44,764 nt of DNA, from the IMG/VR virus record IMGVR_UViG_3300045988_107297, one strand, 5' to 3'. The position numbers and the translations under genes are program-made. This stretch comes from a virus. This document shows, in pieces, positions 9,101 to 44,299 of the stretch (positions within the stretch are counted from its first letter, which is position 1; the number at the start of each line of letters is the position of its first letter). A model generated the notes under the pieces. It searched no databases. It was not told the DNA's origin and saw only the letters and a list, made by a program, of their open reading frames with translations.

Positions 9101-12100
9101 CCAACCTTCCCGTATTCGACGACTACGACGAGGCGCTGGCATACCGCGACAGTCTGCTCACCACCCCCGCCGAAAGCGGCAGCATTCCAGAACTCATGCC
9201 CACCGCAAACCAGAGTGTGCAAGAGCCTATCCCCACATTGGCTGACCACCCCAACACGGTAGGCGCGGCGCAACGGCAATTTGACCGGCCCGAAGTTGCC
9301 AGCCAGAGCCACATGACCCGCGACACAGACAATGATTACCTGCAACCTCTTGTGCAGAGAGATCAAGGCGGTGAGCAACAGTTTACCCACGAGCGCGTAA
9401 GCAACGCAGACCGAATGAAGATTGCGGCCAACAGCATGGAGACCGAAAGCCGCGACGAGATCGTGTCCCGCTTGACCAGCAAAGAGCAGTGGGACGCAGA
9501 TGACACCGCGCTGGCCGGAAGCGTACTACGCGAGTGGGATTCGGCTTTGGGCGATATGGACAAGAGCGGCGAGGCGTACAAGCAGGCCCTTGCCCAGAAG
9601 ATGAAGTTTACCCAGCGGATTAGTGAATCCAACACCATGAATGCGCAAGCACTGCAAATGACGCAGGAGTTTACCACTCCTGAAACCGCCGTGATGCAGT
9701 CGCAGAAGAGCATTAAGACTGCCGTTGACCGTGTAGCAAATGGCAAAAACAAGCGAAAGTTCGACCAATACAAGGGCGATGTGGAGACGGCCGTTGCAAA
9801 CGCAGAGGATACGGCCACGCAAAAAGCCAATGACGCGGTGCAGAAAGCCATTGAAGCTGTGCAGCAGCAGGCCACAGACACGGATGCACAGCCCAGCAAT
9901 GCGACAAAACGCGGCAAGCGGACAGAAAAAACGCAGGATGAGGCGAACCAGCCCTCTGCCGAAGATGTACTGAGCCGCAAGCTGGCGGCTGCCGTAAAGC
10001 GGCACGTAACGGACGGGAAAGAATCCAGTGTTGAGGACGTTGTACAAAGCGAAATGCTTTCCCAGCTGACCAAGATGGCGACAAGCGACACCGAAAAAGG
10101 TGCACGGCCCCAAAAGCCGAAGCTGACGGTTGAGGAAAAGCTGCAAACCGCGTTGGACAATCAAGAGACATACTCGCGGGTATGGGAAGCGGCAAAGGAA
10201 GCGCTTGCCGAAAGGTACAAAGACAACGCTGATATGAGCAGCCGCCTGCAAGCATTCTTCGATGACGCCGGAGAATCCGGTTTGTACGGAAAAGACACGA
10301 TAAAGCAACTTGTGTCCAAGTACACCAAAGACCAGGGGATTGACTTCAAGGCCCTAGTCAAAAAAAGTCGCGGAGACAAACAGGCTACCCTCCGGGAAAT
10401 TCAGGATCGCATTCAAGACACCTTCGACATGGACGACACGCAAGCCCAACGTATCGCCGAAATGGCCATGAACGAGTATTCCAAAGCATTGTCGGAAGCG
10501 GCGGACGCAAACCTGAAAGCCATCCGGGGCGGGAAAGGCAAAACGAGCAAGTCCACGCACGACCAATTTTTGGAGCTGTTGCGCATGGGCGTTTACGATG
10601 AAGGCGACGTGCAGGCGTATGCTGCATCCAAATTCGGTGTGCAGCCGTTGACCGCCGAACAGTGCCAGCAAATTCTCGACCTTGCAGAGCGGGCGGAACA
10701 GCTCCCCGTGAACAGCCGTGACCGGGTGTTGATGGAAAGTGAGGTAGCAACGATTGCGGCCCAAAATCTGAGCGGCTCTTTCCGCGATGCATGGGACACA
10801 TGGCGCTACACATCCATGTTGCTTAGTGCCCGTACCAACGAAAAAAACATCGGCGGCAACGTGTCGATGGGCCTGAATGCCCGCGCAAAGGACGTTGTTC
10901 TTGCAGCCATGGAGTGGATGATTAACAAAGTTGCCCCTGGAAAGGTTGAACGCACAACGGCGATTGTAACCCCGTTCACCGAGAACGGTCGCGCACTGCT
11001 TGCAGCTTCCGCCAACGATGCCGACTTGAACAGTTATCGTCAGCTTTCCGGCACAAGCGAGCGCATGAATCTGGCGCGGGACATGCAGCGGCACCGCGAA
11101 GCCTTCCGGAGCCTTGCATCCCCTGATAGTAACAACATTGTAACCAAGTTCCTGTCCGCTTTGGACAGCCTAGCTGCAAGGGCAAGCGCGCCACTGGAAG
11201 TCTCCGACTATGAGGGCACTTTTGGTGTATTGGAAGGTCTGCGCGGCATTAACAAAGCCATGGATGCCGCGATTGACTGGATTCAGGATTCTGCTGCGAG
11301 TGGCACAAACAAGGGCGTTCTCGGCGTTGCTGGCCTGAAAAACAACTATGCGTGGTCGTTGGCGCAATACCTCAAAGCAAACGGCGCAGACGCAAGCATT
11401 TTCGACGCGACGGACGCGCAAAGCCTGGCTCTGCTTGACAAGGCCAGAGCACACGCCATCCAACAGGCGTTGATTAACACCTACCATGCGGAGTCCAAAA
11501 CGGCCTCTGCCGTGGCCAAATTCAAGGCCGACTTGCGAGGTTCCGACAACTTTGCATCCCGTGTGCTGGGCGACATCGTGGAAGGCCAGCTGCCCTTTGT
11601 GAAAACGCCCATCAATGTGGCAAAGCAGAGCTTGCAGTATAGCCCGCTGGGCTTCGTGTCTACTGCCGCCGAGGGCGTAAAGGTTGCGCGTGGAACTGGC
11701 GATGTAAACCTTATGCTCGACCATGCGGCGGCTTCTGTCACCGGCAGCGTGTTGTTTGCTCTGGGCGGAATTTTGGCCGAGAAGGGCTTGCTCACCGCTG
11801 GAATTGGGGACGACGAAAAGGACAAGGCAAATCTGGAAGGCCGCCAAGAATACAGCCTCCAGCTGGTGGACGACGACGGGAAGCTGCACAGCTACACCAT
11901 CGACTGGGCCAACGCTGCCGCTATTCCGATGTTTGCCGGAGCAGAGTATGCAAAGCTGGCTGCAAGTGATGGGGCCTCTCTGAATAGCGTTGCGTCCGCG
12001 TCTCAACAAGTGCTTGAGCCTCTGCTGGAAATGTCCTTCTTGCAGGGCTTGAATAACAACCTTGAATCTCTGCGCTACTCCGAGGATCCTTACATTTACG

Positions 12101-12909
12101 GCATGGCGAAACAATCCCTGAGCAGCTATGCAACACAGGGTATTCCAACGCTTGCCGGGCAAGTCGCCAGAAGCATTGACCCCGTGCGGCGCAGTACATA
12201 CAGCGGCACGACCGGCATTGAATCCGACATCGGCTACACGGCAAACAAAATCCGCAACAGAATCCCGTTCCTGTCCGAGACTGGGCAGCCGTACATTGAT
12301 GCATTCGGCGACACCCAGTCGAATACCGGCGGAAGTTTTGCCGGGCGGCTGGCATACAATATGTTCTCCCCCGGCTACTATTCCGAGACGACGGACGACC
12401 CCGTGAAGCAGGGTGTGCTGGATTTGGCCAACAGCTCTGGAGACAACAGCGTAATTCCGGAAGTCGCAGAAAAGAAAGTGTCTTGGACAGTTGACAAGGG
12501 AAAGCACACCTACCAGCTTTCTCCGCAAGAATACACCGACTTTGCAACACAGCAAGGCCAACTGCGCAAGGACATGGCAGAAGCCGTGTTGGATTCCCGC
12601 TACACCGAAGAGCAGCAAGTGGAGCTTATCCCGGAGCTGTACGGCACCGCAGGCAAGATTGCGGCTCTGGACATTGTGCCCGACTTCTCCGTTGGCACCG
12701 AAGAGCGGAAGCGCATTGATATCTACAATCAGTATGGCATTGATGGGCTGATGAACTGGATTGCCTACCGGAAGTATGCGAACACGGACGGCAAGACGGG
12801 CATTAACCAGAGCGAGGCCCGTGCATGGCTGAATGACAGCGACATGAGCGATGCCATGAAGGATGCATTCTGGGCGGCGAGTTCGTCCAACTGGAAATCT
12901 TCTCGATGA
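6133..12909 (+). CDS. giant 2258-aa multi-domain protein (candidate virion-packaged ejection / polyvalent protein)
   Basis: One uninterrupted ORF with RBS AAGGAGG. It has an Ala/Lys/Glu/Gln-rich N-terminus, a hydrophobic stretch (nt about 7424-7560), a GNAT-like looking module (nt about 8620-9020) and a long C-terminal globular region. Confidence 0.8.
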   Translation: MPYSDQEAFLNAYLKNYAKAQQNAVNSGKTGLSSARYTGQQAMNAAPTTLPDYGDIAGSFTTAYTKQLAAVEAQREKEAKAAQAAAEKEARAAASAAKKASSSTTKSKKLKKEELKALDAELEELAKTRVALQERKETQDANTRERIKENVGDTAGISSLTAASRTFAPERKGSATKKSLSQRIVAGVKGLAKVPSAVKDGVVQGTALHNRMKAARGGVSAEDSVDLGGVQTPQATAAKQKSRTKARASVAKQNFTTQELDARLTATNQRMRELQKQGKTKTREYRQLQNQHDTYATALGVDSFAGRAGATGLGAVSGFAAGLANMGDATARAIRGQSASMDIPEYEAASDDLQEANEQRDALIQMGRAYTDTPNGPVATPEFQQVLDRIASAKGVRAENQVTPERNQVVSNMLDFAQNQNQKAQAGLDNTGRFLVGTIGSVAQNLPAFAAAAAVPEAAPVLIPALMGVSAAGNRENELEQRGVPLNQAVLRSGLSGAVSAITNKLPLEQGAELMAGNGPGFVRAMARQALSEGGQEASEYAADYGLDVLAGDPDANFSLAELGQQALGGALGGAISAAGSSLIGSGMNRAREALGANGNAPMDTDVQQAEPVSPAPENSVSPEPESVSPSAETATQQPLEATQEGIPELGVVAPDAAPKTAIDVIVDAYRNGTLTNKQIDQLKPGGELRQAFEEATGVTLPDTSSETRKALKAGMQEEIPYLRPVDSAENAGYDGTNEAYTGGASYDGTGRTSGSIAQPDGEGREGIPELLRNPENRGWQGSGANNVAERNSVGGNQVLHGLLTDSPEMQAALERSGATPLELRDTTSDPQLFSSALEEARQKNPHGLMVSPKTVEELNQPGTRTFMSADNMAGALVTADGDIEAVFKNPQSKAKQAATSLLITAVENGGRKLDCYGLDLVTQYNRRGFEAVARIPFNAGAVEDGWTYGAKDVYVMKLLDGVTAQDIAGRLRMDEADGGFHMQTDAELANLPVFDDYDEALAYRDSLLTTPAESGSIPELMPTANQSVQEPIPTLADHPNTVGAAQRQFDRPEVASQSHMTRDTDNDYLQPLVQRDQGGEQQFTHERVSNADRMKIAANSMETESRDEIVSRLTSKEQWDADDTALAGSVLREWDSALGDMDKSGEAYKQALAQKMKFTQRISESNTMNAQALQMTQEFTTPETAVMQSQKSIKTAVDRVANGKNKRKFDQYKGDVETAVANAEDTATQKANDAVQKAIEAVQQQATDTDAQPSNATKRGKRTEKTQDEANQPSAEDVLSRKLAAAVKRHVTDGKESSVEDVVQSEMLSQLTKMATSDTEKGARPQKPKLTVEEKLQTALDNQETYSRVWEAAKEALAERYKDNADMSSRLQAFFDDAGESGLYGKDTIKQLVSKYTKDQGIDFKALVKKSRGDKQATLREIQDRIQDTFDMDDTQAQRIAEMAMNEYSKALSEAADANLKAIRGGKGKTSKSTHDQFLELLRMGVYDEGDVQAYAASKFGVQPLTAEQCQQILDLAERAEQLPVNSRDRVLMESEVATIAAQNLSGSFRDAWDTWRYTSMLLSARTNEKNIGGNVSMGLNARAKDVVLAAMEWMINKVAPGKVERTTAIVTPFTENGRALLAASANDADLNSYRQLSGTSERMNLARDMQRHREAFRSLASPDSNNIVTKFLSALDSLAARASAPLEVSDYEGTFGVLEGLRGINKAMDAAIDWIQDSAASGTNKGVLGVAGLKNNYAWSLAQYLKANGADASIFDATDAQSLALLDKARAHAIQQALINTYHAESKTASAVAKFKADLRGSDNFASRVLGDIVEGQLPFVKTPINVAKQSLQYSPLGFVSTAAEGVKVARGTGDVNLMLDHAAASVTGSVLFALGGILAEKGLLTAGIGDDEKDKANLEGRQEYSLQLVDDDGKLHSYTIDWANAAAIPMFAGAEYAKLAASDGASLNSVASASQQVLEPLLEMSFLQGLNNNLESLRYSEDPYIYGMAKQSLSSYATQGIPTLAGQVARSIDPVRRSTYSGTTGIESDIGYTANKIRNRIPFLSETGQPYIDAFGDTQSNTGGSFAGRLAYNMFSPGYYSETTDDPVKQGVLDLANSSGDNSVIPEVAEKKVSWTVDKGKHTYQLSPQEYTDFATQQGQLRKDMAEAVLDSRYTEEQQVELIPELYGTAGKIAALDIVPDFSVGTEERKRIDIYNQYGIDGLMNWIAYRKYANTDGKTGINQSEARAWLNDSDMSDAMKDAFWAASSSNWKSSR

Positions 12910-13264: not shown

Positions 13265-14419
13265 TTAAGGGGTTTCGACGATATGTTTGACTTCATCCGC
13301 CAGCTTCGCGAATTCTTCCATCGCGGCAGAAATGTGAGAATCCTGTGAAATGTAATAATCGTCCGTAACGGAACTGCCGATCTGGTGGCCGATGGCAAGT
13401 TGCAATGCCTCTTTATCCACCTTCGCTTTGGTCGCAATGCTTGCGTATGTGTGGCGGCAAGAGTAAGGCACATAACGATGCGGGTTTTGTACACCAATTT
13501 CTTCCAGCCCGGAGTAAAATTCCCGCACCCGGAAGTTTCGGGTGTTCCACGCGCTTCCGGTCGGGCTGCGAAAGATTTTCTGCCCGGGCTTTGCGGCGTT
13601 GTAGAAGCGCATAAAAACGTCCCACGTGATGGGGTCGAGAACGATGTACCGGTTCTTCCCGGCGGCGGTTTTGGAGCCTTCCAACCAGATGCCGTGGCGC
13701 TCAAAGTCAATGCAATCGTTGCGAGCAATCTTTGCAAGGTCAGCCATGCGGCAGCCGCTCAAACAAAGAAACCAAATGATTCCCGGAACCCGCTCATGCC
13801 GGTGCTTGTAAAGCAAACGCAAATCTTCGTCATCAAACGGCACCCGCTGGCCCTTCACCTCGGCGGTTAGCTTCAACCCCTCGGAGTAGTCCGTCTGGTG
13901 GATTCCGTGCTGCACACACCACATACAGAGCTTGTGCATAAGAGAGCGCAACTTGTGCTGGTGGGACTTTGATTTGCCTTCATCCTCGGCCCGGAACAAG
14001 ACAGCCTCCAGCGTTTCTTTCCGCACGTTGATTGCCTTTATCTTGTGCAGCTCCTTCATGTAACGCCATGCGTACTCCACGTCTTTCAAGTATTTTTCCG
14101 AGTTTTGCCGGAAAGCGCGGTCTGAGATCACCGCGTCATACACCTGTTGCATGGTGTAGTTGCGATACTCAAGATCAGGCTCTTGCTCCGAGGCCGCGAG
14201 AATGGCCCTCTCCGCGTCTTGTTTGGTTTTGTAGCAACCGATATAGGCTCCCCTGTAAACGGCCTTGTAGGGCGAACTGCGCCCTTGCAGACGCGCAATG
14301 GAGCCGTTCCCCTTTGCCCTTCTTGCCTTTGGCCGTGTGGTTGCCGTCTGCCGTTTGCCACACCACGGGCAAAACAGCGCCCCTTCTGGGATGTCTCTTG
14401 CACATCTCACACACGTCAT
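13265..14419 (-). CDS. int: tyrosine recombinase / integrase with N-terminal zinc ribbon
   Basis: C-terminal HRCRHTYAS...LAIGHQIGSSVTDDYY is the R..HxxR..Y catalytic signature. The N-terminus carries CVRCARDIPEGALFCPWCG. GAGGTG lies 6 nt upstream of ATG 14419. Confidence 0.9.
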   Translation of the reverse strand: MTCVRCARDIPEGALFCPWCGKRQTATTRPKARRAKGNGSIARLQGRSSPYKAVYRGAYIGCYKTKQDAERAILAASEQEPDLEYRNYTMQQVYDAVISDRAFRQNSEKYLKDVEYAWRYMKELHKIKAINVRKETLEAVLFRAEDEGKSKSHQHKLRSLMHKLCMWCVQHGIHQTDYSEGLKLTAEVKGQRVPFDDEDLRLLYKHRHERVPGIIWFLCLSGCRMADLAKIARNDCIDFERHGIWLEGSKTAAGKNRYIVLDPITWDVFMRFYNAAKPGQKIFRSPTGSAWNTRNFRVREFYSGLEEIGVQNPHRYVPYSCRHTYASIATKAKVDKEALQLAIGHQIGSSVTDDYYISQDSHISAAMEEFAKLADEVKHIVETP

Positions 14420-14429
14420 GGCTTGCACC

Positions 14430-16196: not shown

Positions 16197-16256
16197 AGAA
16201 AAAGACCTTTCTTTTTGTGCAAATAGCCAAATGTTTACGCGATTGAAAATTGACTA

Positions 16257-16285
16257 TTGAAAAATAGCCACTTGGCTACTATAAT
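16257..16285 (+). promoter_or_regulatory. early rightward promoter (TTGAAA-17 nt-TATAAT)
   Basis: -35 TTGAAA at 16257-16262, -10 TATAAT at 16280-16285, with an exact 17-nt spacer. Confidence 0.65.
16265..16278. promoter_or_regulatory. operator palindrome TAGCCACTTGGCTA
   Basis: A perfect 14-bp palindrome lies inside the promoter spacer. An extra half-site AATAGCCA lies at 16222-16229. Confidence 0.6.
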
Positions 16286-28303: not shown

Positions 28304-28506
28304 GTGATTACATCACTTTTGCACAACTGGCGGACGCTCTGAGGCGCTGCGGCAGAACACCGACATCATCGGACCCATGCAAAGGCTGCGCTTACAATGA
28401 TGGCACAGTGCGGTGCGTGGCGAAAATGACTTCGCGGGCCGCGCAGGTGATTGAGCTTTTCGCGGCGGATGAGCCGAAGAAGGGAGGTGAGCCTAGTGAC
28501 GTATGA
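28300..28506 (+). CDS. hypothetical protein
   Basis: ATGA overlap, 68 aa. Confidence 0.5.
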   Translation: MSDYITFAQLADALRRCGRTPTSSDPCKGCAYNDGTVRCVAKMTSRAAQVIELFAADEPKKGGEPSDV

Positions 28507-28903
28507 CGAGCGAAAAGCCTGGCTGAGGCGTTACCAGGACGCGCTGGACGACTACCGCATGGCAACCGCCCGGCTGGAAGAGGCCAACACGCAAGCCACG
28601 AAGTGCACGGCCAGCGTGTCCTCTACTCTGGGACGCGGCGGCACAAGCGACCACATCCCGGCGGCCGTGGAGCGGATCGAAGCCATACGCGAGGATGCAA
28701 ACCAGGCCATGGCAGAGGCAAAGGCCGCGCTGGTCGAAATTTCGGCCGCGCTGAAAAAGCTGGAAAGCCGGACAGAGAGGACAGTGCTTGCGTTGCGGTA
28801 CGTGGACGGCTGCACATGGCAGCAGGTGGCGGACAAATGCGGCTATAGCATTGACTGGGTTTATGCACTGCACCGAGCCGCCGTGAAAAATCTGGATAAA
28901 TAA
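28496..28903 (+). CDS. sigma-70 region-4-like late transcription regulator
   Basis: GTG start after AGGGAGGTGA. The C-terminus ERTVLALRYVDGCTWQQVADKCGYSIDWVYALHRAAVKNL is a region-4 HTH. In many Firmicute phages the equivalent gene sits just before terS. Confidence 0.6.
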   Translation: MTYDERKAWLRRYQDALDDYRMATARLEEANTQATKCTASVSSTLGRGGTSDHIPAAVERIEAIREDANQAMAEAKAALVEISAALKKLESRTERTVLALRYVDGCTWQQVADKCGYSIDWVYALHRAAVKNLDK

Positions 28904-28906
28904 AAT

Positions 28907-28946
28907 AAGAGGCCACATCCAAAAGGGTGTGACCTCTTGTTTTTTA
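28907..28946. terminator. bidirectional rho-independent terminator between convergent units
   Basis: AAGAGGCCACATCC (28907-28920) pairs with GGGTGTGACCTCTT (28925-28938), with one mismatch and one G-U pair. T-runs are present on both strands. Confidence 0.75.
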
Positions 28947-28950
28947 TTCG

Positions 28951-29268
28951 TCAAATTAGCCCGAAATGTTCCGCCAACAAAAAGCGGATATAATCCGGAC
29001 AATTCCGCTGTGACCCACACCAGTTTTGCATGGTGCGCAGAGGGATGCAAGCAGCCCGGGCAAAGGCAGATTGGCTCATTCCGGTGGCTTCTGCGAGTTC
29101 CCGCATATTCATGTGCGCAACGTCCCAAAAGCGGGACAGACGTACGACTTCGGCGTCGAGATCAACGCAACCCGGCGCGTCGTCGGGGACGCTCATGGTC
29201 ACATTGTTTTTAAAGACTTCCTTCGGCTGCTCTTGAGCCATTGCAAAGAGTTCTGCTTTGTTCCACAT
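28951..29268 (-). CDS. HTH DNA-binding protein, Aca-like terminal gene of the operon
   Basis: RBS CAGGAGGAAA before ATG 29268. HTH: MRELAEATGMSQSAFARAACIPLRTMQNW. Confidence 0.65.
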   Translation of the reverse strand: MWNKAELFAMAQEQPKEVFKNNVTMSVPDDAPGCVDLDAEVVRLSRFWDVAHMNMRELAEATGMSQSAFARAACIPLRTMQNWCGSQRNCPDYIRFLLAEHFGLI

Positions 29269-29294
29269 TCTTGATTTCCTCCTGTTGATATCTT

Positions 29295-29329
29295 GTTTCA
29301 ATCCACGTCCCCCGCACGGGGGGGACGAC
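29295..29329 (-). repeat. solitary type I-C-like CRISPR repeat unit
   Basis: The minus strand reads GTCGTCCCCCCCGTGCGGGGGACGTGGATTGAAAC. Compare the I-C repeat GTCGCGCCCCGCACGGGCGCGTGGATTGAAAC. There is a single copy, no spacer array and no cas genes. Confidence 0.7.
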
Positions 29330-29332
29330 ACA

Positions 29333-29749
29333 TCACCAGATAGGTGATACTGCCTCGATGGTAAACGGGATGTTTTCCCGCTTACCAGACTTTGTGGGAG
29401 CGGAAACAACGATCGTTTTGATCGCTGCGTCTATTGCGGCCTCAACGCTTCCGGTCACGCGGATTGGGTCGCATGTGATTATTACGAGGTTGGCGTTGCC
29501 GTCACTCGTCCGATAGGCGGAACGAAGATGCCAGCCATCCTTTGTGATGTAGTCCGGCAGCGAAAGCGCAACCCTTTTGTTGTGCGGTGCATCTCCCTGG
29601 AATCCGCACTCCCATTGCCAGCCGGAAGGAACGGGAAGGGCGGTAAACGAAAAGCCGTCCACCTGCGTGAAGCAGGCAGATTCGTCCGGCTCGCGGGTGG
29701 TTGAGCGCCTAACGGCGTATTTTACGGATACAACGACCTCAGTTGTCAT
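29333..29749 (-). CDS. hypothetical protein (138 aa)
   Basis: RBS AAAGGAGGA. No recognisable motif. Confidence 0.6.
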   Translation of the reverse strand: MTTEVVVSVKYAVRRSTTREPDESACFTQVDGFSFTALPVPSGWQWECGFQGDAPHNKRVALSLPDYITKDGWHLRSAYRTSDGNANLVIITCDPIRVTGSVEAAIDAAIKTIVVSAPTKSGKRENIPFTIEAVSPIW

Positions 29750-29827
29750 GGCTATGTCCTCCTTTGGCCTGCCTCATCAGTACCGGGCGGCCATCCCCGG
29801 CAGACGGCCCGAAGGCCGTTTCGGCTG

Positions 29828-30181
29828 TTATGCGGGCATCCCGTCACGCATGGGGATTCGACGGTACCCGGTGAGCTGCCCAACTTCACGGATAAGTGGC
29901 CACATAAACTGTGGGATGTCGGAATACTCCTCATCCTCGTGGAGCATACTGCCGTATGTCGCGTGGTATTCGAGGCCGAAGGCTTCGACCTCCACATAAA
30001 TGCGGCTGCCAAAGTCGCCGCAACTGCAATCGTCAATGGTAACTGTTACGTTACCATTACCCACAACGATTGTGGGCTGGGGGTAGTTGCCGCCGTTGTT
30101 GGCCAGCTCCGGGCGGTTGGGGTCGTAGGTCGCGGCCTCAACATATGATAGGACGCGCAGGGGTTTGCCGGTGAGTTTCAT
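29828..30181 (-). CDS. hypothetical protein (117 aa)
   Basis: RBS GAAGGAGGGA before ATG 30181. Confidence 0.6.
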   Translation of the reverse strand: MKLTGKPLRVLSYVEAATYDPNRPELANNGGNYPQPTIVVGNGNVTVTIDDCSCGDFGSRIYVEVEAFGLEYHATYGSMLHEDEEYSDIPQFMWPLIREVGQLTGYRRIPMRDGMPA

Positions 30182-30204
30182 GGTTATTCCCTCCTTCTTT
30201 GTGT

Positions 30205-30279
30205 ACCCATGAGCGCCCACCCCTTACGGGGTGGCCGGGCTTGCACCGGCGGCGCGTGAGCGTCGGCCTTGCGGGTCAG
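30205..30279 (-). ncRNA. 75-nt structured intercistronic element, copy A
   Basis: About 80% identical to 32246..32320. Three hairpins are preserved by compensatory changes. The strand assignment is assumed from the operon direction. Confidence 0.5.
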
Positions 30280-30620
30280 TTTTCGCGGAAGGTGGTGGTT
30301 ACATCGGGCTCAGGGAGTTCGTCGGGCGTTACTCTCCCGAGCCACAGCTCTGTGGTCTTGGGCTCGTCGGTCTCGGGGTCGTAGCCCACAAGCCCATCAG
30401 AGCCGCGCGCCGTGATGCTCAACACGGCGCCGACCTTCCCTGCGAAGATTTCCTTGCGGTACTCAAGGACAACCTTGCTGAGGCTGTAACCCGCCACGTT
30501 GCCGATTCGAGCGCGCTTTGCGATACGCTCGAAGTTCTGTTCCACCGCCTTGACAACGGTTTCGCCAGAAATTACGTAATCCGAGTAATAGTCCCAAAAA
30601 TGGACGCTGTACTTCTTCAT
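30276..30620 (-). CDS. hypothetical protein (114 aa)
   Basis: RBS AAAGGAGAAA before ATG 30620. The stop codon lies inside element A. Confidence 0.6.
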   Translation of the reverse strand: MKKYSVHFWDYYSDYVISGETVVKAVEQNFERIAKRARIGNVAGYSLSKVVLEYRKEIFAGKVGAVLSITARGSDGLVGYDPETDEPKTTELWLGRVTPDELPEPDVTTTFREN

Positions 30621-30634
30621 TGCTTTTTCTCCTT

Positions 30635-30838
30635 TCACATGAGTACCCAGGGACCGCGACGGAATGCCGACACGGACGGGGTGCCGATGTCCCAGCCGCC
30701 GCCGTACTTCTTCGATGCCGGCTTGTAGGGGTAAGCGGGTTCTGTGCCGCCGTTCTTCGTGCCGCGCAGGATACGTCCATTCTCCACGTACACATCTGCG
30801 CCGCAAATGCGGTGCCAGCCGTCTTTAATCTTCGTCAT
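30635..30838 (-). CDS. hypothetical protein (67 aa)
   Basis: RBS GCAGGAGGA. It is the first gene after promoter 30883-30911. Confidence 0.6.
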   Translation of the reverse strand: MTKIKDGWHRICGADVYVENGRILRGTKNGGTEPAYPYKPASKKYGGGWDIGTPSVSAFRRGPWVLM

Positions 30839-30882
30839 TGCTTTGTCCTCCTGCTTTTTCGTTTTGCTTCCTCGCTGTCTAC

Positions 30883-30911
30883 ACTATACCACTCATTGGG
30901 TGGTGGTGCAA
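30883..30911 (-). promoter_or_regulatory. sigma-70-type promoter TTGCAC-17 nt-TATAGT with TG extension
   Basis: The minus strand reads TTGCAC caccacccaatgagTGg TATAGT. On the plus strand, ACTATA lies at 30883-30888 and GTGCAA at 30906-30911. Confidence 0.6.
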
Positions 30912-30948
30912 TTCGCAATTTGCCTAAATTTTGAGATTCTTTTTTGTG

Positions 30949-30972
30949 CAGCCGTTGCAAATGCAACAGCTG
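30949..30972. promoter_or_regulatory. near-perfect 24-bp palindrome upstream of the promoter (candidate operator)
   Basis: The sequence is CAGCCGTTGCAA/ATGCAACAGCTG. The perfect core GTTGCA-AA-TGCAAC lies at 30954-30967. Confidence 0.5.
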
Positions 30973-31064
30973 GAAACAGCTACCCACACTACAAAAACGC
31001 ACGTGAATGTGATATATTTATGGTGTGAGGATAGGGAGAGGCGAAAGCCCCTCCCCTATTTGCA

Positions 31065-31964
31065 TCACAGGTCGAGCGCTGAAATCTCATCCAGAGCCCG
31101 GCGGGCGGCGCGCTTGCCGTTGTCGGTGAGCTGGCGCTGCCATGCCTGGTTGCGGGGGGACCAGCGGAAAGCCCACTTTTTGAGGATGGCGCGGACCTCT
31201 TCGGCGGGTTTGCCGTCAAAAATCAGCTGTACCCGCATTTGCTCGGGGTCCTCGCGGTAGGTGATGCCGTCGTGGTCCACTTCGGCGGGGGCGGCTTCCT
31301 GGGCGGCCTGCAGGCTCTTCAGCCGCTGCTCAACGCGTTTTGCGTTGGCGAGCGAGTTTGTCAGTACATAGGACGGGTAAGGGGTACCGACGTACCAGCC
31401 ACGCGCCCACATGGCCTCAATCCCATTCTGGGCGGCCGGGGTCAGCTCCGGGCACCCGTCCAGGGTACCGTTCTTCCGATAGTAGGCATTCACGGCCTTC
31501 ATCGCGGCGTGCTCCGCCTTCAGGCCCTCCAGCTTTGCGGTCAGGGCCTCGATCGCCTCGGGGTCGTTGCTCTTGATGGGCTGGGTGTGGGCGGTGCGGA
31601 GTAACTGCAAGTAGTGCTCTGCCCGGTTAAAGGTCTCCCGGTTAGCGTCCCACGCGGCCACCTGCTTGGCCTTCTTCGCGGTCGGGAAATTGCCAGCGCC
31701 GGAGATCATGACGGACGGGCACCGGGTGCCGATCTCGTTGTCACGGTTGATGGCCTCCGCCAGGGTTGCGGCGTACCGGTCAAGCAGGTATTCGGCGCGG
31801 TCTCGCTGCGCCTCGGTGGCGCACTTGGCTTTGACGGTCTCCAGGATTCGCGCGGCCTCGTCCACCTGGGCGGTGTAGCTGGCGGTTGCGCTCCCGGGCT
31901 GGTAGTCGCTAAAGCTGCGCATCTCATGCGCCCGGCGGGCGGTGTCCTCGTTGATAGTGTACAT
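31065..31964 (-). CDS. DUF3560-like protein (299 aa)
   Basis: The C-terminus LIFDGKPAEEVRAILKKWAFRWSPRNQAWQRQL resembles the DUF3560 module seen in conjugative elements and polyvalent proteins. Confidence 0.55.
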   Translation of the reverse strand: MYTINEDTARRAHEMRSFSDYQPGSATASYTAQVDEAARILETVKAKCATEAQRDRAEYLLDRYAATLAEAINRDNEIGTRCPSVMISGAGNFPTAKKAKQVAAWDANRETFNRAEHYLQLLRTAHTQPIKSNDPEAIEALTAKLEGLKAEHAAMKAVNAYYRKNGTLDGCPELTPAAQNGIEAMWARGWYVGTPYPSYVLTNSLANAKRVEQRLKSLQAAQEAAPAEVDHDGITYREDPEQMRVQLIFDGKPAEEVRAILKKWAFRWSPRNQAWQRQLTDNGKRAARRALDEISALDL

Positions 31965-32210: not shown

Positions 32211-32245
32211 GGTGTAGCCTCCTTGTAGATGTGCTAGGGCTTTCA

Positions 32246-32320
32246 ACCCATGAGCGCCCGCCCATCTGGGCGGCTGGACTTGCACCAGCGGCGGCGGATG
32301 CCGTCGGCCTTGCGGGTCAG
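32246..32320 (-). ncRNA. 75-nt structured intercistronic element, copy B
   Basis: Paralogue of 30205..30279, with the same length and the same position relative to the flanking ORFs. Confidence 0.5.
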
Positions 32321-32744: not shown

Positions 32745-32793
32745 GTCGTCCTCCTTACTCTTCTGCTCGCGGCCCTGTGCCGCTTGCTGTGAC

Positions 32794-32897
32794 TATATGA
32801 TAGCACATATATGCTAGCATATGCAATAGGCAATGTGCACAAAGATATGTGCTATCATATGTGCAAGATGTATGCTTGCATATAACCTCCGTATAAT
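32794..32897. promoter_or_regulatory. operator-rich divergent promoter region
   Basis: A 16-bp perfect inverted repeat pairs 32795-32810 with 32845-32860. The palindrome ATATGCTAGCATAT lies at 32809-32822, and TGCAAG/CTTGCA at 32862-32880. TATAAT lies at 32892-32897 on the + strand. TTGCAT-18-TATCAT lies on the - strand at 32797-32826. Confidence 0.6.
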
Positions 32898-32924
32898 GTA
32901 TCATATACTTGGAGGTGATATGGC

Positions 32925-33245
32925 ATGAGCACGACAGAGGCACAGCGCAGAGCTACGGCGCGGTATCTGGCAAAGCAGGTCACCCTCACGGTGCGGGTGT
33001 CGCCAGAGCAGGCCGAGACGCTGAGAGCCGCAGCAGCTGGCGCAGGCATGAGCTTGACACGGTACCTGGTGAGCGCAGCAGAGGCCCGGCGGGCAGCACC
33101 AGAGGCAGAGCCAGACGGCGACCGCATACGGCTCAGCCTGAGAGCTGATGCAGTCCAGGGCCTAGAGGCTGACGGCGAGACGCCAGCGCAGACAGCGGCA
33201 CGGCTGCTAGCTGACGCTATCAGGCAAGCAAGACAAGACACATAA
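32925..33245 (+). CDS. ribbon-helix-helix DNA-binding protein
   Basis: RRATARYLAKQVTLTVRVSPEQAETLRAAAAGAGMSLTRYLVSAA has a beta-strand plus two-helix RHH layout. RBS GGAGGTG. Confidence 0.6.
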   Translation: MSTTEAQRRATARYLAKQVTLTVRVSPEQAETLRAAAAGAGMSLTRYLVSAAEARRAAPEAEPDGDRIRLSLRADAVQGLEADGETPAQTAARLLADAIRQARQDT

Positions 33246-33301
33246 TGACGGGGCGACCTTCACGACGTGGGGGCCGCCCTCTTTTATAAGGGGGCGAGGA
33301 T

Positions 33302-34318: not shown

Positions 34319-34428
34319 CCCCAAGGCCGATGACCCGCTAAAATATTTTGTCTGTGTCCAGGTGGGATTTCGCGGCAGGCCTTCCCCGCGCGCCTCTCTC
34401 TGATGCGTACCATGCGGGGCTTTTTTAT

Positions 34429-34502
34429 TGGGCTGTGGCCAAACGGTAAGGCATGGGACTTTGACTCCCAGATAGCAGGTTCGACACCTGCCAGCCCATC
34501 CA
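34429..34502 (+). tRNA. tRNA-Gln (anticodon UUG)
   Basis: Manual fold: TGGGCTG/CAGCCCA acceptor, GCCAAACGGTAAGGC D-arm (as in bacterial tRNA-Gln), TGGGA-CTTTGAC-TCCCA anticodon arm, GCAGG-TTCGACA-CCTGC T-arm. CCA is encoded. Confidence 0.85.
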
Positions 34503-34633
34503 ATGGGTGAGCCGGGCACAGGATAAGCCCGGAGGGCGGGAACGGGGTGTGCGTGCAAATAGATGGGCAAGCGGGAAAGCCTCCGCCCAGTAAGGCCCTG
34601 CAATGGGTCTGCGCACAAGGGAAAGGAAGAAGT

Positions 34634-40505: not shown

Positions 40506-42413
40506 ATGTTCGAGAAGCTGAAACACGCTGCTGACGATGCCACAAAGCGGGGGAAATGGCAAAGTCGGCTGGATGACGCAAGGAAACAGTACGACCGCAC
40601 CATTATGGATACCCGCGAAGCGCTGTACCGTGGCGATAAAAACATTCGTGGCGCAAACGGCACAGACGCAGATAAAAAGGCAACCAACGTCCGCAACATC
40701 GTGTACGAGCTAATCGAAAGCCAGGTGGATTCCTCTATCCCCGCCCCCCGCGTAACGGCTATCCACGAAGAGGACAAAGAGCTTGCAAAAAAGATTGAAG
40801 CTCTGTTGCTGAACCTGAGCAAGCAGCTCAACCTGAAAGAGCTGAACGACCTGCAAGAACGAACCGTCCCCATTCAGGGCGGTGACTTCTTCCACGTTGA
40901 GTGGGACCCGCATGGCGGCTATCACTGTATGTTGGGCGACGTAACGCTGACGGAGCGCCACCCGAAGCAGGTTATTCCGCAGCCCGGCGTGTACGACATC
41001 GACAAGATGGAGTACATTTTCATTCTTGTAAGCCAGCCGAAACGCTACCTTGAACGGCGGTACGGCGTTGAAATCAAGGATGAAACAGAGGATGATGTGG
41101 CGGCCAGAGGGCAGAATCCGAGCTCTGTAAGTGGCATTGTTACTCAAAATATCGCGTATTATCGTAACGATGAAGGCGGCGTTGGCCTGTACAGCTGGTG
41201 CGGAGACGTAACTCTGGAAGATTTGGACAACTGCCAGAAACGGCGCGGTAAAGTGTGCGCGAAATGCGGCCGCCCGAAGTCCGGCGATGTGTGCGAGTGC
41301 GGCAGCAAAAAGTTTGTGGAAGGCCCACTGGATGTGCAAGAGCTGACCGAGGACATCACCATTTTTGGCGGTGAAACTGTTGCGGCAAGCACCCCGGGTA
41401 AAGACGAACTTGTGATGAACCCGGACGGAACCCCGCAGGTGGACGAGGAAGGCGTGGCTGTTACCATGCCCGGCCCGAACGTGCCCACGCAAATTCCGTA
41501 CTACGAGCCGAAAGAAATCCCCGTTGTTCTCCGCAGCAACGTGCGAATGTTCGGCCGCTTCTTGGGCGTGAGCGACGTTGATGTGATTGAAGATCAGCAA
41601 AACGCGATCAAGAAGTTTGGCACGAAGATTGAAGAGAAACTGCTCAAAGGCGGCAGCTATGTTACGCTTCCGCAAGGCGTTCAGGTTGAAACCAGCGACA
41701 AAGAGCTGAAAATCATGCGGCTGAAAAACCCGGCGGAAAAGGCGTTGATTTCTGTTATCAATGTTCAGCCCGACACAAGCCGCGAACAGCAAATGCTGGA
41801 AAGCAATTACAGCTGGGCAAAGAGTACGCTGGGCATTAACGATTCGTATCAGGGCAAGTACGATGCATCTGCAACCAGCGGCAGCGCAAAGCAGTTTGCT
41901 GCACAGCAGGCGGCTGGCCGTTTGCAGTCCAAACGCGAGATGAAGAATCAGGCGTATGGGCGGCTGTACAAGCTGCTCTTCAAGTATATGTTAGCCTATG
42001 CCGACCAGCCATACCCGATGACTTACACGGCAATCGGCGGAGAACAGACGTTCGCCCATTTCAACCGATGGGACTTTTTGAAGCGAGATGCCGCCGGGGA
42101 ACTGTACTGGGACGATGAGTTTATTTTCGGCGTTGACCCGTCTCCGAACATGGATGCAAACCGTGAACGGCTGTGGGATATGGCCGACGTGAAGTATCAA
42201 GCCGGTGCATTTGGCCCGATTAGCGAACTGACTACCAGCTACCGATTCTGGACTTATCTAGAAGATAATGGATTCCCTGGAGCTGGGAAGGTAAAAACCG
42301 AAATCAAACAGCAGATGGACGAGCAGCAGCAAATGCAACAGGCTGCACAGCAAGTAATACAGCCGGATATGATCATGACTGACAGTGACCATTTGGAGGG
42401 GGCAGACGTATGA
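40506..42413 (+). CDS. portal protein (with a zinc-ribbon insertion)
   Basis: ALYRGDKNIRG...NVRNIVYELIESQVDSSIP and VSDVDVIEDQQNAIKK parallel SPP1 gp6-type portals. The insertion reads CAKCGRPKSGDVCECG. Confidence 0.7.
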   Translation: MFEKLKHAADDATKRGKWQSRLDDARKQYDRTIMDTREALYRGDKNIRGANGTDADKKATNVRNIVYELIESQVDSSIPAPRVTAIHEEDKELAKKIEALLLNLSKQLNLKELNDLQERTVPIQGGDFFHVEWDPHGGYHCMLGDVTLTERHPKQVIPQPGVYDIDKMEYIFILVSQPKRYLERRYGVEIKDETEDDVAARGQNPSSVSGIVTQNIAYYRNDEGGVGLYSWCGDVTLEDLDNCQKRRGKVCAKCGRPKSGDVCECGSKKFVEGPLDVQELTEDITIFGGETVAASTPGKDELVMNPDGTPQVDEEGVAVTMPGPNVPTQIPYYEPKEIPVVLRSNVRMFGRFLGVSDVDVIEDQQNAIKKFGTKIEEKLLKGGSYVTLPQGVQVETSDKELKIMRLKNPAEKALISVINVQPDTSREQQMLESNYSWAKSTLGINDSYQGKYDASATSGSAKQFAAQQAAGRLQSKREMKNQAYGRLYKLLFKYMLAYADQPYPMTYTAIGGEQTFAHFNRWDFLKRDAAGELYWDDEFIFGVDPSPNMDANRERLWDMADVKYQAGAFGPISELTTSYRFWTYLEDNGFPGAGKVKTEIKQQMDEQQQMQQAAQQVIQPDMIMTDSDHLEGADV

Positions 42414-42991: not shown

Positions 42992-44299
42992 GTGGCCTTC
43001 ACAAAAATCACAGATGAAGATTTGCAAAACAAAGGCGTTATTGGCCTGCCTGATACGCCCGGCCTCTCCACAAGCGAGATGCAGGCAAAGTTTGAGCAGA
43101 CGGCGCGGGAAGTTATCGTGCCGATGTTCAATAAGCTAGTGGACGAACTTTTAGGTCCTTCGGCGGCAAGTCAAATCGGCGCCAAAGGCAAAAACCGCAC
43201 AGTGCAAGGCCACATTGACAACCTGGAAAATCCGCACAATGTAACTGCGGAACAGGTTGGGGCGTATACAAAAGACCAGACAGAAAAAGCAATCAGCGAC
43301 CGCATTTCCCAGATTGGTAGTGCGGATATGACGCAAGCCACGTATGACCCGAACCACAGGCGACAGGACATCTTCGCCTATGCCGACTCTCGCGGCGTAA
43401 GCACTTACACGCACACCAAGATGGACAACGTGCACCACTTTAACGGCTCTGGCACAAGCGGCCGCGCCAAGATGACGGCTGACGTGGAAGCCGGGGACAC
43501 GGTGATGCTGGACGGAAAGGAAGTGCCCGCCTATGTGGGCGCGGAAACCTTTGCCGATGCGCTGGCCGGTGAATCCGTCACGGGCCGGTGGCTGACCTTT
43601 ACGCAGGACGGTACGCAGATAAATTTTAATGGTGGCGGGGGCCTGTCGAATACCAAGCTCGCCCTCGCCACTGCCGACACCGGAGACGTGATTTCTGGCA
43701 AAAAGTTTTATTCTGGCGACAAAACGCTTAAAACCGGTGAAATCCTGCCACGCAACACCGTCGGGCAAAACGGTACCGTAGGAATCAGCCAGTATTTTCC
43801 CGAGGTGGCCGTATCCAAGGCGAATAGCGACAACACGCAAACAAACAACAACCTTGATGGGGTTTCTCGCTTGTGCTTGCAGCCCCCTGCTGGATTTTAC
43901 GATGGGAACAGCTATGTGGGCGAGACTTTTTCCAAAGTGGCCAGCGCAATCGGCCTGACAGCGGGCAAGCTTTGCGCCGGGAACACGGTGCTGGGCGTAA
44001 ATGGGGCCGGTGTGACGAAAGCGGTTTGGAATGGATCTATTCCAAACGACACCTCGACGCATAGTCTGGCTACCACTCCCGCCGCTGGTACTCTGCTTTT
44101 CTTCTTCGCGGGCAACGCCGATCACGATATGCAAATCAAATCAATTACCATTGGCAGTAAGGTGGTGGCAACGCCAGGGCGAAACAACATGTACTTTGCT
44201 ACGTTCTCTGTGACTGCAAACCAAAACATTTATGTGCAATGGGATATCAACTTCGGCGGTGGTAAACCAAGCGGGAAGGGCGTAATTTGCTACGTGTGA
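42992..44299 (+). CDS. tail fibre / receptor-binding protein
   Basis: The N-terminus ITDEDLQNKGVIGLPDTPGLSTSEMQAKFEQTAREVIVPMFNKL is a conserved Firmicute phage fibre anchor. Its central module is paralogous to 884..1636. Confidence 0.7.
   Translation: MAFTKITDEDLQNKGVIGLPDTPGLSTSEMQAKFEQTAREVIVPMFNKLVDELLGPSAASQIGAKGKNRTVQGHIDNLENPHNVTAEQVGAYTKDQTEKAISDRISQIGSADMTQATYDPNHRRQDIFAYADSRGVSTYTHTKMDNVHHFNGSGTSGRAKMTADVEAGDTVMLDGKEVPAYVGAETFADALAGESVTGRWLTFTQDGTQINFNGGGGLSNTKLALATADTGDVISGKKFYSGDKTLKTGEILPRNTVGQNGTVGISQYFPEVAVSKANSDNTQTNNNLDGVSRLCLQPPAGFYDGNSYVGETFSKVASAIGLTAGKLCAGNTVLGVNGAGVTKAVWNGSIPNDTSTHSLATTPAAGTLLFFFAGNADHDMQIKSITIGSKVVATPGRNNMYFATFSVTANQNIYVQWDINFGGGKPSGKGVICYV

Follow-up and report, generated by a model that had tools for sequence, protein, structure and literature searches.

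The DNA analysed here, IMG/VR virus record IMGVR_UViG_3300045988_107297 (44,764 nt, 44.8 kb; hereafter the window), is the genome of a temperate phage of about 45 kb with a tyrosine integrase gene at 13265-14428. Our subject is an operon on its minus strand, running from 30972 to 28902, in which five small open reading frames (ORFs) are punctuated by structured RNA elements (Table 1). A twister-sister ribozyme separates the second cistron from the third and a type II hammerhead ribozyme the third from the fourth, while a solitary type I-C CRISPR repeat, in sense orientation, stands between the fourth cistron and the fifth, which encodes a helix-turn-helix (HTH) protein. The locus was compared across a set of 11 phages, made up of ten IMG/VR contigs and the window itself; ORF1, the block formed by ORF4, the repeat and the HTH gene, and the promoter are kept across this set, and the genes between them vary. 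A DNA similarity search against 50,697 GenBank phages matched the hammerhead (in two gut phages) and one tRNA and yielded no annotated relative, the hammerhead being the sole part of the operon with matches in that collection.

Table 1. Features of the operon and of the neighbouring minus-strand region; positions are those of the window.
Feature	Position	Strand	Description
ORF1	30838-30635	-	67 aa, first cistron
ORF2	30620-30276	-	114 aa
ORF3	30181-29828	-	117 aa
ORF4	29749-29333	-	138 aa
HTH gene	29268-28951	-	105 aa
Twister-sister ribozyme	30200-30279	-	Rfam RF02681, 85.8 bits (gathering score 34), full-length
Type II hammerhead ribozyme	29763-29826	-	Rfam RF02276, 64 bits (gathering score 37), full-length
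Solitary type I-C CRISPR repeat GTCGTCCCCCCCGTGCGGGGGACGTGGATTGAAAC	29295-29329	-	RNA anti-CRISPR candidate, sense orientation
Promoter-like site	30883-30911	-	TTGCAC (30911-30906), 17-nt spacer, TGgTATAGT extended -10 (hexamer 30888-30883); read from sequence
Palindrome CAGCTGTTGCATTTGCAACGGCTG	30949-30972	.	24 bp, repeat I8, 11 + 11 nt arms, 91% complementary; candidate operator
Bidirectional intrinsic terminator	28902-28943	.	Repeat I1, 19-nt arms, flanked by A and T runs
Second twister-sister ribozyme	32241-32320	-	Rfam RF02681, 78.3 bits (gathering score 34), full-length
Conserved hairpin	31034-31056	-	After the upstream 299-aa gene, between two minus-strand operons

The ribozymes fit closely between the genes that they separate. 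The twister-sister starts on the ORF2 stop codon and fills the gap between ORF2 and ORF3; with the cleavage step C^A taken from PMC5660989, its predicted cut is at C^A of CGCUC^AU, between 30211 and 30210, and would leave ORF3 with a 29-nt leader that includes its ribosome-binding site. A single nucleotide separates the ORF3 stop codon from the start of the hammerhead, which on its 3' side runs right up to the Shine-Dalgarno sequence of ORF4. Its core motifs CUGAUGA and GAAA are intact, and with the predicted cut after GUC, between 29803 and 29802, the ORF3 mRNA would carry stem III at its 3' end, and the ORF4 mRNA stem I at its 5' end. The same design recurs in the upstream early operon, where the second twister-sister lies directly past a 30-aa ORF and 27 nt before a 72-aa ORF, so that all three ribozymes of the window fall within one 3-kb minus-strand island. 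In all 11 phages each ribozyme takes up the intercistronic gap, beginning at the stop codon and ending 13-30 nt short of the following ATG. Near-identical copies of the twister-sister have different genes on both sides across the relatives, and at equivalent junctions of the upstream operon its place may be taken by a pistol or RAGATH-5 ribozyme (L005, 3549-3615; L010, 4291-4357; L011, 3658-3710). That one class can stand in for another, non-homologous one at corresponding junctions suggests that cleavage itself is under selection. We infer that the ribozymes are insulators, which would give each cassette its own mRNA ends, and at the same time conserved linkers for cassette exchange.

The repeat follows the ORF4 stop codon at a distance of 3 nt and precedes the start codon of the HTH gene by 26 nt. 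It is single-copy in the window, where no further copies were found beyond chance, and its hairpin has a predicted energy of -16.6 kcal/mol. All 11 phages carry a repeat at the same junction, with a stem that is 98.6% paired and in which two pairs have changed on both sides (GTCCCCC/GGGGGAC versus GTTCTCC/GGAGAAC). Between the window and relative L006, ORF4 is 97% and the HTH gene 95% identical, as against 59% for the repeat, and the comparison of the window with L010 gives the reverse pattern. By these alignments the repeat is swapped between phages independently of its flanks, in a module of about 65 nt. In a scan for host repeats, with one genome taken per species, the same repeat class was found to build true arrays (33-nt repeats with a period of about 67 nt) in Oscillospiraceae, Ruminococcus, Eubacteriales and other Clostridia. 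One such array adjoins cas3, cas5d, csd1/cas8c, cas7, cas4, cas1 and cas2, and from this gene set the subtype is I-C. The phage repeat variants are within 1-2 nt of true array repeat variants of Clostridia type I-C systems, and they correspond to distinct host variants: one base separates the host repeat of L033 from the phage copy of L011, and likewise the host repeats of L022, L041 and L043 from the phage copies of L007 and L009, whereas the window copy differs from the L033 host repeat by a 2-nt loop insertion and in the last base. The swapping of repeats seen in these comparisons would fit selection for the Cas5d of different hosts.

Two GC-rich hairpins in the operon had been taken as engineered mRNA segments in a first-pass annotation made from the sequence alone. 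Both hairpins are real and belong to elements predicted to segment the mRNA, but they are natural: that at about 29785-29812 is part of the self-cleaving hammerhead, and that at 29306-29327 is the stem of the repeat, which the same annotation had called CRISPR-like and which proves to be a genuine solitary type I-C repeat. The twister-sister between ORF2 and ORF3 was absent from that description.

Viral solitary repeats act as RNA anti-CRISPRs (Racrs; Camara-Wilpert et al. 2023, PMC10651486). In the supplementary list of solitary repeats of that paper, obtained with the SRUFinder pipeline, the copy of relative L008 (IMGVR_UViG_3300010266_000024, 16229-16261) is typed I-C; the window's own contig is absent from the list. 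Since the L008 copy is listed there, the repeat can be regarded as an already catalogued Racr candidate, and its setting agrees with this: it is a single unit outside any array and away from cas genes, it is borne by a temperate phage whose presumed Oscillospiraceae hosts hold type I-C arrays with spacers against it, and it has been detected, by way of the L008 copy, with a published pipeline. The spacer evidence comes from a comparison of the window with 445 spacers of the retrieved host arrays. Type I-C spacers of one Oscillospiraceae metagenome-assembled genome (MAG; L024) match the window at 43553-43587 (34 of 35 positions) and at 31518-31551 (31 of 34), and a spacer of another (L032) matches at 41026-41059 (33 of 34) next to a TTC protospacer-adjacent motif; the contigs bearing them are SFJO01000020.1 and CAKSWY010000029.1. 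A further L024 spacer partly matches the twister-sister region of relatives. As two Oscillospiraceae arrays hold matching spacers, the phage appears to be under type I-C pressure, and Oscillospiraceae, known here from metagenome-assembled genomes only, are its likely host.

Several other repeat-like sequences were seen during the searches. A weak CRISPR-DR9 match at 33275-33301 was set aside as an ordinary intergenic hairpin. Apparent singleton repeats in bacterial genomes were mostly parts of arrays or mini-arrays rather than solitary repeats of prophages; two of the mini-arrays in host genomes (L049, 5273-5400; L055, 6120-6250) combine a single I-C repeat with one spacer and a second, degenerate repeat, and may be regulatory loci resembling those for CRISPR RNA (crRNA). 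A minimal I-C-like solitary repeat, ATGTTAGTCGCACTTCGGTGCGTGGATTGAAAC, with a 5-bp stem and a UUCG loop, recurs in many gut viral contigs (L109, L113, L122, L144, L151, L154, L173, L202 and others), nearly all from IMG sample 3300045988, and the eight such loci scanned had no ribozymes nearby.

All five small minus-strand genes of the first-pass annotation are present where it had placed them, each has an AGGAGG-type Shine-Dalgarno sequence in front, and their ratios of nonsynonymous to synonymous substitution (dN/dS) against the relatives, 0.10-0.34, indicate purifying selection and hence real genes. The promoter had been described as near-consensus. Its two hexamers, the 17-nt spacing and the TG extension stand, but the description is overstated, as the -35 hexamer agrees with TTGACA at three of six positions, for which reason the site scored under the threshold of the promoter scanner. 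It is invariant in 10 relatives, along with most of the surrounding 150 nt, and has a short ACCAC/GTGGT inverted repeat within its spacer (likewise read from the sequence); we consider it plausible as the promoter of the operon. No promoter-like site was found directly upstream of the HTH gene, where the sole scanner match falls inside ORF4 at chance level. The palindrome and the bidirectional terminator that had been claimed are both there. The former is located about 40 bp upstream of the -35 hexamer, clear of both -35 and -10, is intact in nine of ten relatives, and has no further copies above chance in the window; the latter is common to the operon and to a convergent late-regulator gene (28451-28903, plus strand). 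The HTH gene, said to be terminal, is so in the window but not in most of the relatives. The conserved hairpin upstream of the operon shows compensatory changes in its arms among the relatives and has no clear U tract after it; it may serve in termination, stabilisation or processing.

Searches of Pfam, NCBIfam and PDB sequences gave no match for any of ORF1 to ORF4, and PHROGs matched ORF1 and ORF2 only. ORF1, which is basic (pI 9.8) and present in 10 of the 11 phages, belongs with phrog_33937, a family of unassigned function, and only seven homologous clusters were found for it. ORF2 is a variable cassette whose place is taken in five relatives by an 87-aa gene unrelated to it; ORF2 has a dN/dS of 0.16 and one marginal match, to the functionally unassigned family phrog_13298. 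ORF3, acidic (pI 4.6), is also a variable cassette, found in three of the 11 phages. In two further relatives its C-terminal part has been recombined into another gene; in place of ORF3 the slot may hold a 208-aa gene together with one of 82-107 aa, or a 99-aa hybrid.

ORF4 is modelled with confidence by AlphaFold2 as a beta-rich domain (predicted local distance difference test, pLDDT, 86.5; predicted template-modelling score, pTM, 0.82). Foldseek gave no fold match for the model in the PDB, the template-modelling (TM) score being below 0.2 for 49 of the 50 matches listed and 0.30 for the other, and no RelE/HigB toxin fold was among these 50. In BFVD the matches were limited to phage homologues, all uncharacterised, and a single longer protein that bears the annotation of an HTH regulator. 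The family is narrow and confined to phages: one search gave 21 clusters, and a second, of 1.84 billion proteins, gave 24 representatives. ORF4 itself exists as two diverged alleles (dN 0.17). Its homologues always stand beside, or are fused with, a DNA-binding domain, be it of the present HTH family, RHH_1 or HTH_3/HTH_26. In the 281-aa protein P0154 an ORF4 domain is fused with a full-length homologue of the HTH protein of the operon (34% identity, E 3e-15), and a homologue of AcrVA2 (PDB 7CI1, E 8.6e-7) is encoded next to it; the AcrVA2 homology was given by the PDB sequence search, although a Pfam scan of the neighbour was negative. In P0170 a Cro/C1-type HTH is fused to the ORF4 domain, and a Lar anti-restriction gene lies nearby. 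P0149 occurs in temperate phages, where a gene for a ribbon-helix-helix (RHH) protein follows it and the location is flanked by the lysis genes on one side and the prophage end (integrase/resolvase or host genes) on the other; P0151 has an HTH_3 gene before it. ORF4 is the best candidate in the operon for a protein anti-CRISPR (Acr) or for a partner of the HTH protein.

The HTH protein itself is modelled with high confidence (pLDDT 91.9) as an N-terminal helical part followed by a C-terminal XRE-type helix-turn-helix. Foldseek found the HTH domain weakly similar to HigA2, C.AhdI, Aca10 and Aca1, none of them significantly, and the best PDB sequence match, Aca10, was not significant either (E 0.69 with the single sequence, 0.98 with a profile). 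We found 248 homologues, with source names such as YiaG, antitoxin or HTH. Most members of the HTH family pair with a small upstream gene different from ORF4. Homologues of 64-66% identity occur in temperate phages. Their operon (L061, 5600-5990) has a consensus promoter, TTGACA-17-TATAAT, with the palindrome ACACGCAgTGCGTGT in its spacer; the promoter is followed by a 70-aa ORF rich in Asp and Glu, an attenuator-like terminator hairpin and then the HTH gene. To judge from its sequence, this would be a textbook layout of the kind seen with anti-CRISPR-associated (Aca) regulators, here without a CRISPR repeat. In the 64-66% homologue loci the terminator-like hairpin occupies the junction at which the window lineage has the repeat.

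Taking these observations together, we consider the chances somewhat better than even that the locus is an accessory counter-defence operon of the acr-racr-aca type, carried by a temperate gut Oscillospiraceae phage of about 45 kb, with its mRNA segmented by two ribozymes and a Cas5d-type site. Under this reading the extended -10 promoter would give a transcript of about 2 kb comprising ORF1, ORF2, the twister-sister, ORF3, the hammerhead, ORF4, the I-C repeat and the HTH gene. The two ribozymes would cut themselves at the predicted positions and release the cassette genes as separate, insulated mRNAs with structured ends. The solitary repeat would fold as the host repeat does and be bound and cut by the host's Cas5d endonuclease; if highly expressed, it could, by analogy with Racrs, sequester Cas5d, Cas7 and Cas8c in useless complexes. 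ORF4, immediately upstream, would be the best candidate for a protein inhibitor acting beside the repeat, and the XRE-type HTH protein probably represses the operon as an Aca would. Autoregulation is put no higher than this because the palindrome lies upstream of the promoter rather than over it.

Parallels for each part of this proposal exist in known systems, all with differences. Acr and Aca functions can be fused in one protein, as in AcrIIA1 and AcrIF24. P0154 and P0170 resemble these in joining an HTH to the ORF4 domain in a single protein; unlike them, the window has separate genes with a CRISPR repeat in between, and the ORF4 domain is without known Acr activity. Synthetic operons are insulated by RiboJ-type ribozymes or by Csy4/Cas6 sites between cistrons. 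RNA-cleaving elements between cistrons uncouple the expression of neighbours there and may do so here, but the design in the window is natural, and its CRISPR-repeat site would depend on the host's Cas5d. Clusters of hammerhead, twister, twister-sister, pistol and RAGATH motifs near phage genes were reportedly described by Weinberg et al. in 2015. The window likewise holds several ribozyme classes within a few kb among small phage genes of unassigned function, and for phage ribozymes too the processing of polycistronic mRNA has been suggested, though not demonstrated, as a role (PMC6765202). The ribozymes of our locus differ in being placed exactly from the stop codon to the ribosome-binding site, in the replacement of one class by another, and in the CRISPR repeat at the third junction, which ties the operon to a counter-defence context. 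We found no literature linking self-cleaving ribozymes to acr or racr loci.

The acr-aca operons with Aca1, Aca2 and Aca10 (7XI5, PMC9410881) share with the window a strong-looking promoter, small orphan genes, an XRE-type HTH gene near the end and a palindrome near the promoter. In contrast to them, the window's HTH protein matches Aca10 and Aca1 as a generic fold only (E 0.7-2) and has an extra N-terminal helical half, the palindrome is clear of -35 and -10, and an extra gene follows the HTH gene in most relatives. The closest precedent for the repeat is RacrIC1 in a Bifidobacterium pseudocatenulatum prophage, which shares a transcript with an acrIC5 homologue 11 nt ahead of it and allows phage to infect a type I-C host again (PMC10651486). 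As in that prophage, an I-C repeat follows shortly downstream of a small phage gene (3 nt in the window, 11 nt there), the host has the matching CRISPR-Cas subtype, and a relative's repeat is in the list of the same paper. On the other hand, the upstream gene of the window is no homologue of AcrIC5 or of any known Acr, the repeat belongs to an operon of five genes, where an HTH gene comes directly after it and ribozymes take up other junctions, and Racr activity was demonstrated there whereas here it is proposed from sequence. This kind of locus is already known; what is new is the ribozyme-punctuated operon setting, along with the orphan ORF4 and HTH families.

The first-pass annotation had read the locus as an acr-aca operon. 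The layout, with an HTH regulator gene downstream of small genes, has held, and the type I-C repeat adds to it, but no member of a known Acr or Aca family was found. Profile and structure comparisons (Pfam, NCBIfam and PDB sequences, with Foldseek for ORF4) matched no known Acr, none of ORF1 to ORF4 shows by them homology to a demonstrated anti-CRISPR protein, and the HTH protein, compared with solved Aca structures, falls in no described Aca family, resembling Aca10 and Aca1 as a generic XRE fold only. These absences weigh against a counter-defence operon, and so do other features: ORF1 is basic and ORF4 is not acidic; the palindrome is upstream of the promoter instead of over it and has been lost in one relative (L010); one more gene, of 244 aa, follows the HTH gene in most relatives; and the HTH fusions of the ORF4 domain would equally fit the sensor domain of a regulator. 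Moreover, in 288 kb covering another 31 viral loci that have I-C-type solitary repeats, ribozyme searches gave nothing above threshold. The pairing of ribozyme and repeat is therefore specific to this lineage (0 of the 31 other loci), and it may be coincidental.

It could be, then, that the locus is a generic early or accessory (moron-type) operon encoding host-takeover or regulatory proteins, in which the ribozymes insulate shuffled cassettes and the repeat, as the sole anti-CRISPR part, is there by chance. The lack of any protein similar to a known Acr, the mosaic gene content among the relatives and the other I-C solitary-repeat loci without ribozymes would all be expected under this explanation, as would the presence of ribozymes in the upstream operon, one protein of which matches a PHROG family annotated as primase. 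However, ORF4, the repeat and the HTH gene stay together as a block in all relatives, in other elements the neighbours of ORF4 homologues include a homologue of AcrVA2 and a Lar anti-restriction gene, and genes of the ORF4 and HTH families occur at moron-type positions of temperate phages behind strong promoters. We consider such a generic operon unlikely, although it is the alternative to which we would give most weight. A further possibility is a separate two-component module made up of ORF4 and the HTH protein, be it a toxin-antitoxin pair in higBA order or a regulator with a sensor or partner domain, with the repeat hairpin only tuning the ratio of the two. The order of a small protein followed by an XRE HTH protein with an N-terminal extension is indeed that of HigBA modules; HigA2 antitoxins are the structures that the HTH protein matches best, the name "antitoxin" is given to a homologue by one source, and the constant company of a DNA-binding domain, adjacent or fused, is as one would predict. 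Yet the ORF4 model has no RelE/HigB-like or other toxin-like match among the 50 PDB matches listed, its family is tiny and phage-only, unlike those of typical toxins, and most members of the HTH family are paired with another small upstream gene. Fusions of toxin and antitoxin are unusual in general, which also counts against such a pair. A two-component module also leaves unexplained why a precise mimic of the host CRISPR repeat, tracking its variants, should stand between the two genes, and we regard this module as improbable.

The last explanation denies the repeat any function at the RNA level and sees in it either the relic left by a recombination event with a host array or an attachment site through which the phage would integrate into CRISPR arrays. 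The phage is temperate and has a tyrosine integrase, and integration into arrays has been proposed earlier as a role of solitary repeats (cited in PMC10651486). An attachment site was judged unlikely and rejected, however, on account of the 15 kb that separate the repeat from the integrase gene. The sense orientation within the operon, the hairpin maintained by compensatory changes and the occurrence in all 11 phages speak against a functionless repeat as well, and since the repeat has been swapped to match host variants while its flanks stay 95-97% identical, a relic is hard to reconcile with the comparisons and seems very improbable.

Returning to the counter-defence operon, the position of the repeat 5' of the HTH cistron admits an additional role beyond that of a decoy, namely the sensing of host Cas activity. 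A Cas5d cut would leave an 11-nt crRNA handle on the HTH mRNA, and Cas7 would then coat, as a pseudo-spacer, a stretch of about 35 nt with the Shine-Dalgarno sequence at +12 to +17 and, at +27 to +29, the AUG. Active type I-C proteins would block translation of the repressor and keep the operon on, and without them the repressor would shut it off. The ribozymes would provide the other cassettes with Cas-independent RNA ends and conserved exchange junctions. We consider this extension improbable, and put it forward as a speculation on the arrangement of the junction.

Elsewhere in the window, two sub-threshold Rfam matches on the plus strand (34384-34544) surround a tRNA-Gln(ttg) gene (34429-34502) just upstream of the large terminase gene, with a tRNA-Thr(tgt) gene upstream of the pair: a D12-methyl RNA at 34497-34544 (51.6 bits, gathering score 57) and an abiF RNA at 34384-34420 (28.6 bits in the window and 40 bits in L006, gathering score 37). 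An ORF for a very large accessory protein of 2258 aa (6133-12909, plus strand) between the endolysin and integrase genes has no Pfam domain and just a weak match to a PHROG without assigned function. A gene for a TacA/NikA-like ribbon-helix-helix protein (32925-33245, plus strand) is separated from the early minus-strand operon by an AT-rich divergent promoter region (32745-32925) dense in short palindromes.

For gut Oscillospiraceae hosts we know of no Acrs, and none turned up in our analysis. The orphan fold of ORF4 and the new HTH family are nominated here as Acr and Aca candidates, respectively, against the type I-C systems of Oscillospiraceae. Hammerhead, twister-sister and pistol ribozymes near phage genes have been known for over a decade, their role being undemonstrated (PMC6765202), and a locus in which ribozymes occupy exact junctions from stop codon to ribosome-binding site makes that role testable. 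The hypothesis that we propose is that such ribozymes may serve as natural insulators and cassette boundaries in the counter-defence operons of phages.

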